Assembly (NCBI GenBank): GCA_048884965.1
Contig: JBHLQH010000004.1
Coordinates: forward strand, 115,368 to 179,367
Reading direction: 5' to 3'
Length of the DNA: 64,000 nt
Source of the DNA: Candidatus Thorarchaeota archaeon
Lineage (GTDB): Archaea > Asgardarchaeota > Thorarchaeia > Thorarchaeales > Thorarchaeaceae
Of the stretch, positions 45,396 through 47,932 are shown piece after piece; position 1 is the stretch's first letter; each line of letters begins with the position of its first letter. Below the pieces are notes generated by a model that worked only from the letters and a program-made list of their open reading frames with translations, was not told the DNA's origin and did no database searches. A program made the translations under genes and the position numbers.

Positions 45396-45410
45396 ACAAG
45401 AATTTATATA
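45396..45410 (+). promoter_or_regulatory. Archaeal BRE/TATA promoter of tRNA block 1
   Basis: TTTATATA at 45403-45410 after a purine-rich element, about 25 nt before the GGAG leader start. Confidence 0.7.
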
Positions 45411-45427: not shown

Positions 45428-45508
45428 GGGAGATTACTATGTGTTCAGTACCACAACCCGGTGAACAGATAGCCCAATATTGGGCAGAGCATATGTAGTC
45501 GTTTCTCT
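45428..45508 (+). ncRNA. Structured leader RNA of block 1 (unknown family)
   Basis: GATTAC-T-ATGTGTTC pairs with GAGCATAT-GTAGTC. Internal hairpins TACC/GGTG and GCCCA/TGGGC. GGGAGA/TTTCTC closes the fold. Confidence 0.55.
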
Positions 45509-45515
45509 AATTCTT

Positions 45516-45590
45516 GGGGCTGTGGTGTTAATGGTAACATATCTGCTTGGCTGGTAGACGATTGAGGTTCGATCCCTTACGGCTCCACCA
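45516..45590 (+). tRNA. tRNA-Ala(GGC)
   Basis: GGGGCTG/CGGCTCC with G3:U70, loop TT-GGC-TG, ACCA end. Confidence 0.85.
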
Positions 45591-45602
45591 ATTAGAGTAT
45601 GA

Positions 45603-45681
45603 GGGCATAGTGGCTGGAAGTAGTTAACGCGCTCGACTTGCAATCTTGAGTATGTAGGTGCAAATCCTACCGTGTCCACCA
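45603..45681 (+). tRNA. tRNA-Ala(UGC), degenerate (a Cys GCA reading is possible)
   Basis: G3:U70 and A73, irregular anticodon arm CTCGA-CTTGCAATC-TTGAG, T-loop TGCAAAT. Confidence 0.6.
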
Positions 45682-45689
45682 TCATTTGG

Positions 45690-45764
45690 GGTGAATGTGG
45701 TGAAAAGGTATCATAACAGTCCGTGAAGCTGGAGTTGAGAGTTCGATTCTCTTCATTCACACCA
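45690..45764 (+). tRNA. tRNA-His(GUG)
   Basis: GTGAATG/CATTCAC, encoded G-1, loop CC-GTG-AA, A73-CCA. Confidence 0.82.
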
Positions 45765-45769
45765 CCTAT

Positions 45770-45843
45770 GGGTATGTACGTTAACGGCAGACAATTCGAC
45801 TCCAGATCGTATTGTAGAGGTTCAATTCCTCTCATGCCCACCA
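45770..45843 (+). tRNA. tRNA-Trp(CCA), intronless
   Basis: GGGTATG/CATGCCC, loop CT-CCA-GA, ACCA end. Confidence 0.8.
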
Positions 45844-45844
45844 A

Positions 45845-45922
45845 GGGCCATTAGCATAGTTGCGGAATTGCACTCCTCTCATAAGGGAGGTTGCGTTGGT
45901 TCAACTCCAACATGGCCCACCA
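45845..45922 (+). tRNA. tRNA(CAU), Ile2-like or Met
   Basis: GGGCCAT/ATGGCCC, CTCCT-CTCATAA-GGGAG, ACCA end. Confidence 0.82.
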
Positions 45923-45925
45923 CTT

Positions 45926-46001
45926 GACTAGGTAGCATAATAGCGAGTGCCCTTCCCTTGGACGGAAGTTCATGCAGGTTCAAGTCCTGTCCTAGTCACC
46001 A
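45926..46001 (+). tRNA. tRNA-Pro(UGG)
   Basis: GACTAGG/CCTAGTC, CTTCC-CTTGGAC-GGAAG, ACCA end. Confidence 0.85.
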
Positions 46002-46004
46002 TCT

Positions 46005-46079
46005 GCTCCGTTGGTGTAGTGGAAATCACTCGATCCTTTCGAGGTTGGAACGGGGGTTCAATTCCCCCACGGAGCACCA
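46005..46079 (+). tRNA. tRNA-Glu(UUC)
   Basis: GCTCCGT/ACGGAGC, loop CT-TTC-GA, ACCA end. Confidence 0.9.
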
Positions 46080-46081
46080 CT

Positions 46082-46155
46082 GCGTAGTTGAGGTAAAGGT
46101 AACCCACGGGGCTTCCAACCCTGAGCTGGGAGTTCGAGTCTCCCACTGCGCACCA
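46082..46155 (+). tRNA. tRNA-Gly(UCC)
   Basis: GCGTAGT/ACTGCGC, loop CT-TCC-AA, ACCA end. Confidence 0.9.
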
Positions 46156-46157
46156 AT

Positions 46158-46233
46158 AGCCCTGTAGTGTAGACGGAAAGCACGTTGGACCTTGAATTCG
46201 ACGGTCTCGGTTCGAATCCGGGCGGGGCTACCA
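46158..46233 (+). tRNA. tRNA-Gln(UUG)
   Basis: AGCCCTG/CGGGGCT (A1-U72, archaeal type), loop CC-TTG-AA, ACCA end. Confidence 0.87.
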
Positions 46234-46234
46234 T

Positions 46235-46310
46235 CCCAGAGTGAATCTAAGGGCCAGGACATAGGTCTGTAAAGCCTGTGATGCCAGTTCGAGTCTGGCC
46301 TCTGGGACCA
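46235..46310 (+). tRNA. tRNA-Tyr(GUA)
   Basis: CCCAGAG/CTCTGGG (C1-G72), short variable loop, loop CT-GTA-AA, ACCA end. Confidence 0.85.
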
Positions 46311-46311
46311 T

Positions 46312-46386
46312 AGGAGCTTGGTCAAGCGGTAAGACAACTGTCTAACATACAGTCGATCGGTGGTTCGAATCCACCAGCTCCTACCA
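46312..46386 (+). tRNA. tRNA-Val(AAC)
   Basis: AGGAGCT/AGCTCCT, ACTGT-CTAACAT-ACAGT, perfect T-arm, ACCA end. Confidence 0.87.
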
Positions 46387-46403
46387 AATTATCCAAAATT
46401 CAT

Positions 46404-46418
46404 GTGAAAATTTATATA
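46404..46418 (+). promoter_or_regulatory. Archaeal BRE/TATA promoter of tRNA block 2
   Basis: GTGAAAA-TTTATATA, about 25 nt before the GGAG leader start. Confidence 0.75.
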
Positions 46419-46432
46419 CATTCATGAAAAGC

Positions 46433-46670
46433 ACTGGAGGATTACCAATGTTCAGAGAAAATAGTTTGATAGCGTCGTCAAGGACGACACTCGAACGCTC
46501 CACCCATGATAGTCCGAATAAGGACTAGGGTGAGTACACAATCTCTGGACATCACTGCTTCTTTCAAGTCTGCTGGTCTTCAGGGATAGTGGATTTTCTC
46601 TTTGTTGGAGGGCATGTTGCAAAGGAAGAGGGGGAGACCCTCTCTCGTCCCTTGCACTCATCCGTCCAGT
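46433..46670 (+). ncRNA. About 240-nt multibranch structured RNA (unknown family)
   Basis: Terminal stem ACTGGA-GGAT/ATCC-G-TCCAGT, 11-bp ATGTTCAGAGA/TCTCTGGACAT and several nested hairpins. Confidence 0.7.
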
Positions 46671-46676
46671 AAAGGT

Positions 46677-46753
46677 GGGCCAAGAGCACGGTTCGGTTGT
46701 GCAGGAGGCCTTTAACCTCCTAGACGCGGGTTCGAATCCCGCTTGGCTCTCCA
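46677..46753 (+). tRNA. tRNA-Lys(UUU)
   Basis: GGGCCAA/TTGGCTC, GGAGG-CCTTTAA-CCTCC, G8 and C33, TCCA end. Confidence 0.85.
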
Positions 46754-46771
46754 TGCATAGGTCAAAACAGT

Positions 46772-46908
46772 GGAGTGGTAGCTCAATCTGGCAAGAGCGA
46801 TAGCGTTTCACTGTCATTCATACCGTGATCCCTGAGAAGGGCATCGAGTGACAGTTTGCTTTTGGTTCATACCAAGAGATGCTGGTTCAAATCCAGCCCA
46901 CTCCGCCA
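46772..46908 (+). tRNA. tRNA(CAU, Met-like) with a ~60-nt hairpin insertion after the D-arm
   Basis: GGAGTGG/CCACTCC, canonical D- and T-arms, insert at about 46800-46859, TTTTGG-TTCATA-CCAAGA arm, GCCA end. Confidence 0.7.
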
Positions 46909-46913
46909 ACCTT

Positions 46914-46990
46914 GGCGCTGTAGCCAAACGGATCAAGGCACATCCCTTCGAAGGATGGAGGTCTCGGTTCAATTCCGAGCAGCGCCTCCA
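46914..46990 (+). tRNA. tRNA-Arg(UCG)
   Basis: GGCGCTG/CAGCGCC, CATCC-CTTCGAA-GGATG, TCCA end. Confidence 0.88.
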
Positions 46991-46997
46991 AAACCAT

Positions 46998-47074
46998 GAC
47001 CCTGTAGCTCAGTGGATAGGGCACCACGCTTCTAACGTGGCGGGACGTCGGTTCGAGTCCGACCAGGGTCGCCA
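46998..47074 (+). tRNA. tRNA-Arg(UCU)
   Basis: GACCCTG/CAGGGTC, CCACG-CTTCTAA-CGTGG, GCCA end. Confidence 0.9.
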
Positions 47075-47093
47075 AAAATGAAAGGTGAAAACA

Positions 47094-47330
47094 ATGTCGT
47101 ATGAACATCTCATCGGTACAGAAGCCGAAGCACAGGTAAAGGTGACAATCAGCGGAGCTCATAGTGATACTCCAAATCTCTTCGTTTGGGATAGAACAGA
47201 GCTGATTGCAAAGATTTGGCTCTACCCAGATGGTAGGATCAAATACCGAAGTTTTGTTCCTAAGACGACACAAGAGATTGAGATCCGAGGTCGACATCTG
47301 AAAGTGTATGACCCAAGGGAGAATCTCTAG
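47094..47330 (+). CDS. 78-aa hypothetical protein embedded in the tRNA array
   Basis: AGGTGA Shine-Dalgarno at 47083-47088, ATG at 47094, protein-like beta-rich composition. Confidence 0.7.
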   Translation: MSYEHLIGTEAEAQVKVTISGAHSDTPNLFVWDRTELIAKIWLYPDGRIKYRSFVPKTTQEIEIRGRHLKVYDPRENL

Positions 47331-47331
47331 A

Positions 47332-47456
47332 GCAAGCAGTGATCCTATGAATCATTGCCGAGGATTCACCAAACCTAGTATAGAACTTGCCTAAAGTGCG
47401 CGTGATGAGAAGAAGTCCTATCAGACGAAGCCTTGAACCTCACGCGCCTTTGGCAA
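47332..47456 (+). ncRNA. Structured spacer RNA(s) within block 2
   Basis: GCAGTGAT-CCTATGA-ATCATTGC hairpin, then long stem TTGCC-T-AAAG-T-GCGCGTGA / TCACGCGC-CTTT-GGCAA. Confidence 0.55.
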
Positions 47457-47463
47457 CACAAAT

Positions 47464-47590
47464 ACCGGTGTAGCACAGTTGGTAGTGCGCCTGCCTAGTA
47501 AGCAACGCACCAAAAGAGTGCGCCTGCCTTGTAAGCAGGTGGTCGAGAGTTCGAAGCTCTCCATCGGTTCCATTCCGAACACCGGTACCA
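47464..47590 (+). tRNA. tRNA-Thr with duplicated arms (anticodons AGU and UGU) and two CCA ends
   Basis: ACCGGTG pairs with CATCGGT (TCCA, 47572) or CACCGGT (ACCA, 47590). 21-nt direct repeat at 47484-47504 and 47517-47537. Confidence 0.7.
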
Positions 47591-47595
47591 TTTGA

Positions 47596-47670
47596 GTGGG
47601 GATACGCTAAGGGTAGACGACCAGACTGTTGATCTGGGATGTGTCGGTTCGAATCCGACTCCCTGCTCCA
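47596..47670 (+). tRNA. tRNA-Asn(GUU)
   Basis: GTGGGGA/TCCCTGC, CCAGA-CTGTTGA-TCTGG, TCCA end. Confidence 0.83.
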
Positions 47671-47675
47671 TCTTC

Positions 47676-47763
47676 GGTCGGATGGCTGAGTGGTTTAAGG
47701 CTCTGGTCTTGAAAATCAGCGCAGGTAAAACTGCCAGAGGTTCGAATCCTCTTCCGATCGCCA
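47676..47763 (+). tRNA. tRNA-Ser(UGA)
   Basis: GGTCGGA/TCCGATC, long variable arm GCAG/CTGC, G73-CCA. Confidence 0.92.
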
Positions 47764-47767
47764 TCAT

Positions 47768-47841
47768 GGGACACTAGTGTAATGGTAACATCTAAGCTTG
47801 TCGCGCTTTGGCTGGGGGTTCGATTCCCCCGTGTCTCGCCA
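47768..47841 (+). tRNA. tRNA-Asp(GUC)
   Basis: GGGACAC/GTGTCTC, loop TT-GTC-GC, GCCA end. Confidence 0.87.
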
Positions 47842-47844
47842 TAT

Positions 47845-47932
47845 GTCTGGGTGGCAGAGAGGTATAATGCACTAGTCTGCTAAGCTAGATTCCTTCTCGG
47901 AAACGCAAGTTCAAATCTTGCCCCAGACGCCA
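47845..47932 (+). tRNA. tRNA-Ser(GCU)
   Basis: GTCTGGG/CCCAGAC, loop CT-GCT-AA, variable arm TTCC/GGAA, GCCA end. Confidence 0.9.

Follow-up and report, generated by a model that had tools for sequence, protein, structure and literature searches.

Dense groups of transfer RNA (tRNA) genes have been described under two definitions, the tRNA gene cluster of archaea (at least 10 genes, at least 2 per kilobase (kb); PMC6333295) and the tRNA array unit (at least 20 genes at the same density; PMC4758250), and a survey of the archaeal clusters in 2019 found none outside the Euryarchaeota (PMC6333295). The tRNA loci of phage T6 are amplified by a homing nuclease together with microhomology (PMC13096335). 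Here we analyze a stretch of 64,000 nucleotides (nt) from a Candidatus Thorarchaeota archaeon (assembly GCA_048884965.1, contig JBHLQH010000004.1, positions 115,368 to 179,367, forward strand; hereafter the window), in which positions 45516-47932 hold an array of 19 tRNA genes and one tRNA-like RNA. With 19 tRNAs in 2.42 kb the locus is a tRNA gene cluster by density, and the higher count of an array unit is reached by two of its homologs, L060 (32 tRNAs) and L142 (28). Here and below, L-numbers, G006 and G050 denote other loci and genomes that were compared, G000 is the genome of the window, and C9 and C47 are its contigs. The array is sorted by the discriminator base (position 73, N73), and this sorting is an inherited gene order that is independent of the two predicted promoters of the array.

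All 20 elements encode their own CCA end and have acceptor stems with 6-7 paired positions. As the sequence-only reading of this DNA had observed, the genes behind the first TATA box (45516-46386) have A73 in 11 of 11 cases, His included, while the nine elements behind the second (46677-47932) have, in order and with the first 3' end counted, U, G, U, G, U, U, G, G and G. That such a partition is not expected by chance is borne out by exact tests of a single split between A73 and non-A73, both for tRNA genes (11 vs 8, p = 1.3e-5) and for amino-acid families (10 vs 6, p = 1.2e-4), and among 53 aligned positions and 7 base splits it is position 73 that is sorted best (corrected permutation p = 0.011). 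If Thr is instead counted by its second 3' end, which has A73, the sorting is imperfect (p = 0.0015). The accompanying remark that each N73 is largely what its family uses holds only in part, as 5 of the 19 tRNAs depart from the dispersed tRNAs of the same genome (Lys G to U, Arg-UCG G to U, Arg-UCU A to G, Asn G to U and His C to A). The dispersed housekeeping set comprises 36 CCA-ending tRNA calls, with which the array is redundant in the manner of the archaeal clusters (PMC6333295), and the array tRNAs obey archaeal identity rules (A1:U72 in Gln, C1:G72 in Tyr, A73 in Glu and Gly). A five-gene Leu/Phe module, A73 throughout, lies on contig C9.

Seven homologous arrays or pieces of arrays were recovered with the embedded 78-amino-acid (aa) open reading frame (ORF) and with the RNA ligase (176 aa) and eRF1-like ORF of homologous arrays as queries. 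Two of them are near complete, lie on virus-like contigs and show the order in one run, L060 having 21 A73 genes and then 11 of the non-A class, and L142 having 20 A, 7 U and one G. The ten A73 genes of G006 keep the order unchanged, G050 has Thr, Thr, Asn, Ser, Asp, Ser and finally a His with C73, and L049, L050 and L056 represent the non-A portion. Only one of 99 genes among the homologs is out of place, a Phe(A73) within the U run of L049, and the partition is thus kept in homologous arrays, which is the check that had been proposed for it. The consensus begins with an A73 part (Ala, Trp, Met, Ile, Pro, Glu, Gly, Gln/Tyr, initiator Met, Val, Leu, Phe) and continues with Cys, Lys, Arg and Thr (mostly U73), with Asn, Ser, Asp and Ser (mostly G73) and with His (C73), and a single boundary between 12 A families and 8 non-A families has an exact p of 1.6e-5. 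The position of His tracks its base, as it lies within the A run where it has A73 (the window) and at the far end where it has C73 (G050), and the non-decoding tRNA-like RNAs have the N73 class of the zone that surrounds them. L060, L142 and G006 lack the His that separates Ala from Trp in the window, and the AAC gene of the window (46312-46386) occupies the place of initiator Met followed by Val in the homologs. The window array is most of a second, archaeal-type tRNA set and a chromosomal remnant of the longer array found on virus-like contigs. Because all sorted arrays share one ancestor, they represent one sorting event and not seven. Fourteen unrelated control arrays, including HGTV-1, T5, KVP40, Aeh1 and the Nostoc trn operon, with G050:C26 used as a control only, are unsorted at the family level (p 0.22-0.89; Bxz1 0.024), their N73 calls being automatic and containing some false tRNA calls. 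G050:C26 (L020) is itself a phage tRNA array of bacterial type binned in an archaeal genome, probably by contamination.

The spare tRNA set is probably derived from a virus. The surroundings of the homologous arrays encode HNH nucleases, RNA ligases, RNase H, a dUTPase, a DNA methylase, a class II CCA-enzyme-like gene and a Ro60-like gene, and the first three of these are also found inside the arrays themselves. The CCA-enzyme-like gene, of class II (bacterial type) and with an HD domain, lies beside the G006 array and the Ro60/TROVE-like gene near the G050 array (L024 3928-5271 and L025 6214-7809). Of 400 genomes searched in the phylum, 3 contain pieces of the array, and the nearest homolog of the PadR gene upstream of the array, in G003, has no array behind it, so that a link to mobile elements and a patchy distribution are shared with the known archaeal clusters (PMC6333295). 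A scan of IMG/VR viral contigs did not find a homologous array, its two matches being unrelated viruses; a metagenome scan gave unrelated arrays only, and in a scan of genome contigs the one match examined of 20 (L141) was without tRNA. By analogy with the tRNAs of phages, the virus probably drew on the array tRNAs as a pool of replacements.

The two-promoter architecture of the window probably has a separate origin. Two TATA boxes are predicted (Table 1), with none further within the array, and leader 2 belongs to the same family as the leaders found 5' of Leu in C9, L060 and L142 (mean column identity of 66%, with 42 columns invariant), which have a common fold with some compensatory pairs. 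In L142 such a leader is followed by Leu, Leu, Leu and Phe(A73) and then, 1 nt on, by Cys(U73), and L050 has an A-ended RNA 2 nt from Cys; hence one predicted unit holds both discriminator classes. The homology of the leaders and the 1-nt spacer between Phe and Cys together indicate that the ancestral second unit carried both classes, and we strongly infer that the split in the window is derived, in that the Leu/Phe module moved elsewhere together with a copy of the leader (both now on C9), so that promoter 2 came to stand before Lys. The leader RNA itself (about 150 nt; window 46440-46600, L017 4060-4216, L060 5190-5356, L142 7690-7859) has no Rfam match and is a candidate for a new family of non-coding RNA.

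We propose, with moderate confidence, that the sorted order was left as a footprint of array construction, with new tRNA cassettes inserted behind genes that have a matching 3'-NCCA end. A cassette would consist of a spacer, in some cases an ORF, and a tRNA gene with its NCCA end, and short-homology recombination would join it to the 3' end of a resident gene whose terminal bases are identical, at breaks perhaps cut by the HNH nucleases of the arrays. An insertion at such a site would add no new boundary between A and non-A, and such an array would therefore sort itself without any selection on order. In simulations with a 7- to 20-fold preference per matched terminal base, 11-23% of runs ended with no more than one A/non-A change, compared with 0% without the preference. 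Neighboring genes have further terminal bases in common in addition to the A/non-A class (p 0.016 in the window, 0.054 in L060 and 0.069 in the A block of L142), while the acceptor interior, the T stems and the D arm show no excess of sharing, and in L049 a Lys-CUU gene is located after the U73-CCA of Lys-UUU and before the spacer found 3' of Lys-UUU in four other arrays. More tentatively, Asgard-archaeal viruses may build full tRNA sets by an undescribed, integrase-free route of capture at resident 3' NCCA ends through 4-6 matching bases, with the order A, U, G, C as the signature and with either DNA cassettes or copies of mature tRNAs as the incoming genes; this broader generalization is possible but doubtful. 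As a separate observation, an extra CCA directly follows the encoded CCA at several sites (L060 after 338 and 3981; L142 after 2268, 6367 and 7945), most of which mark the start of a long insert, and it is possibly a target-site duplication. A search for spare tRNA 3' ends behind the dispersed tRNAs gave a single short-range repeat (on C47), to which no listed tRNA gene corresponds.

Several results weigh against this footprint proposal. The signal from shared terminal bases is weak and was looked for post hoc, and the three arrays so tested are not independent because of their shared ancestry. No recombinase or insertion intermediate was found; no integrase was found among the ORFs of the array loci scanned, the whole genome not having been searched. 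For some rearrangements, such as those of Phe in L049 and of the odd RNA in L056, the junction is at a 5' end, and the T-loop similarity of non-A neighbors in L060 (p 0.007, one of many tests) fits duplication better. At least four changes between U73 and G73 have occurred in Lys, Arg and Asn and none to A73, which could mean ongoing selection. Since the CCA-encoding arrays of phages T5, KVP40 and Aeh1 are unsorted, a lineage-specific factor is needed. No structural gene (capsid, terminase or portal) was seen in the stretches read of the array contigs (1-39 kb), so that the label "virus" rests on gene content.

Selection on processing or defense is a rather unlikely alternative, in which the classes are needed at different times or matured differently, and in which duplication of the whole array followed by class-specific loss sorted it in one step. 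CCA-adding enzymes prefer purines over pyrimidines and A most of all (PMC4477674), and a class II CCA-enzyme-like gene adjoins the G006 array, but all genes already encode CCA and a preference for purines over pyrimidines does not predict the order A, U, G, C. tRNases specific for G73 (PMC5737660) and nucleases of the CCA tail (PMC12851939) are known, and the Lys, Arg and Asn of the arrays often have U73 where the host has G73, both in favor of this alternative. Escape from toxins that target acceptor ends, as suggested by the sequence-only reading, may explain the G-to-U shifts in these three families but not the order of the genes. The 3' processing specific to each block that was suggested alongside does not agree with the reported indifference of RNase Z to the type of discriminator, the archaeal enzyme cleaving after an encoded CCA (PMC7479834), nor with an A/non-A boundary that falls within one predicted unit, and an A73 Phe is tolerated inside the U run of L049.

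Tandem duplication with a change of anticodon (alloacceptor recruitment), in which a copy stays beside its parent and switches only to a family that accepts the same N73, is quite unlikely. Such remolding is documented in mitochondria (PMC4783518), the adjoining Ile(GAU) and Pro of G006 have much body sequence in common, and most best matches between arrays are to other amino acids, that is, the tRNA bodies turn over. However, these cross-family matches ignore the class (24 of 42), bodies are no more similar within a class than between classes (p 0.23, 0.91), and the identity of neighbors is not significant (p 0.08, 0.26), although an old signal could have decayed; the last two results weaken duplication as an explanation. 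That the order is a frozen accident, or that another property such as amino-acid polarity or synthetase class was sorted with N73 as a mere correlate, is highly unlikely. All sorted arrays descend from a single ancestor, and hence from one event, and the feature was noticed post hoc, but the corrected p is 0.005-0.011, Glu and Gln are apart from Asp and Asn, Cys is among the non-A families, both synthetase classes are on each side, and His and the non-decoding RNAs track N73. The original suggestion of one promoter or leader per discriminator class, acting for example by pairing with NCCA ends, is very improbable and largely refuted: in this genome the two classes are divided between the predicted promoters without exception, with the all-A73 C9 module included, and leader 2 has three UGGA against 0.9 expected, but one leader family stands before both an all-A and a non-A block, classes are mixed within a predicted unit in L142, UGGA is also in the C9 leader while UGGU is in neither that leader nor leader 1, and the leaders have no Rfam match to a T-box riboswitch and no UGGN that consistently matches the class.

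The arrays also contain unusual elements, whose coordinates in the window are given in Table 1. The element at 46772-46908 had been taken for a CAU tRNA, which is ruled out, as the CAU is in a second hairpin at the position of the variable arm, behind a long inserted hairpin. This RNA and its counterpart at the same place in L056 (439-559, with U73) have a D arm, the long inserted hairpin, the second hairpin and a T arm, with a short insert motif common to both copies and no Rfam family. An identity as a Y RNA (YrlA) was rejected (RF02553, 18-19 bits vs a cut-off of 69), and the Ro60-like protein of G050 has no tblastn match in G000. Two-ended Thr genes, with an inner U73-CCA and an outer A73-CCA, are found in the window (47464-47590), L142 (10158-10283), L057 (1838-1966) and L054 (5063-5157); the hairpin that links the two ends is nearly invariant in the four sequences and the anticodon arm is duplicated in three of them (AGU and UGU, in either order). 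The predicted fold of the window copy favors the outer end at 47590, which could be a protected or sacrificial tail. A34 anticodons, rare among archaea, are present in two window genes (AAC at 46312-46386, with an initiator-like A1:U72 pair, and AGU at 47464-47510). A eukaryote-like tRNA-His with A73 is found in the window (45691-45764), L054 (6952-7026) and L057 (2475-2549), with G-1 encoded in the window and absent from the two virus-like copies. The structured stretch between the ORF and Thr (47330-47462) was not found in the homologous arrays, and L060 (358-957) and L142 (2288-2881) contain within the array an eRF1/acVLRF1-like ORF that is without the N domain and has GGM instead of GGQ.

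Table 1. Features of the tRNA array and its predicted promoters, in window coordinates.
Feature	Position	Strand	Remarks
TATA box 1	45403..45410	+	predicted archaeal promoter, TTTATATA
Leader 1	45431..45515	+	start approximate; no Rfam family; no UGGU
tRNA-Ala(GGC)	45516..45590	+	A73
tRNA-Ala(UGC)	45603..45681	+	A73; fold weak
tRNA-His(GUG)	45691..45764	+	A73; G-1 encoded; C33
tRNA-Trp	45770..45843	+	A73
tRNA-Met(CAU)	45845..45922	+	A73
tRNA-Pro(UGG)	45926..46001	+	A73
tRNA-Glu(UUC)	46005..46079	+	A73; archaeal type
tRNA-Gly(UCC)	46082..46155	+	A73; archaeal type
tRNA-Gln(UUG)	46158..46233	+	A73; A1:U72; archaeal type
tRNA-Tyr	46235..46310	+	A73; C1:G72; archaeal type
tRNA, anticodon AAC	46312..46386	+	A73; A1:U72; Val per ARAGORN
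TATA box 2	46411..46418	+	predicted, TTTATATA
Leader 2	46440..46676	+	conserved structured RNA; homologous to leaders 5' of Leu in C9, L060, L142
tRNA-Lys(UUU)	46677..46753	+	U73
tRNA-like RNA	46772..46908	+	G73; long hairpin inserted; no CAU decoder
tRNA-Arg(UCG)	46914..46990	+	U73
tRNA-Arg(UCU)	46998..47074	+	G73
78-aa ORF	47094..47330	+	no known family; same position in L049, L050, L056, L142
Structured non-coding stretch	47330..47462	+	z -3.5; no Rfam family
tRNA-Thr	47464..47590	+	anticodon arm duplicated (AGU, UGU); 3' ends U73-CCA 47572 and A73-CCA 47590
tRNA-Asn	47596..47670	+	U73
tRNA-Ser(UGA)	47676..47763	+	G73
tRNA-Asp	47768..47841	+	G73
tRNA-Ser(GCU)	47845..47932	+	G73

The known part of this system is a tRNA gene cluster of the mobile-element type (PMC6333295; PMC4758250; PMC8421152), and the new part is the inherited order A, U, G, C, the mechanism of which is unproven; within the limits of the literature searched, no paper describing gene ordering based on the discriminator was found. 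Our analysis extends archaeal tRNA clusters from the Euryarchaeota of the 2019 survey to an Asgard-type lineage, and it reveals a near-complete tRNA set that is ordered by one nucleotide, with an order that is conserved as the tRNA bodies turn over and that is absent from 14 other arrays. This bears on how viruses and mobile elements assemble large tRNA arrays and on what fixes their gene order, as the sorting predicts, in a testable way, the sites at which new genes join, and offers a sequence signature by which this family of elements can be located. Should the order instead be under selection, it would indicate a novel discriminator-dependent processing or defense activity in these archaea.

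Tyrosine integrases integrate at the 3' ends of tRNAs. The tRNA 3' end is thus the joining site in those systems as in our model of the array, but the array contigs have no integrase that we saw, the cargo is the tRNA genes themselves and the sequence in common spans only about 4-6 nt. The phage clusters with homing endonucleases (T4/T6 SegB; PMC2330249, PMC13096335) and those of T5, KVP40 and Aeh1 also encode CCA and are interleaved with genes for free-standing nucleases and RNA repair, whereas none of the phage clusters tested, which did not include T4 and T6, is sorted by N73, and the microhomology reported for T6 is at the tRNA 5' end. The bacterial tRNA array units or L-arrays, such as the trn operon of Nostoc PCC 7120 (PMC4758250; PMC8421152), are likewise a horizontally acquired spare set in one or a few transcription units, but they have bacterial identity elements, the Nostoc operon is unsorted (p 0.50), and the discriminator is not mentioned in the paper that describes it. 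The tRNA region of HGTV-1 (36 tRNAs; KC292026) differs from the array in that CCA is not encoded and the genes are unsorted (13 changes, family-level p 0.73). Together with the clusters of Halobacteria and Methanobacteria (PMC6333295), however, it resembles the array in being dense, redundant, of archaeal type and linked to mobile elements, and both these systems and the Asgard array family have four Leu genes in a row.

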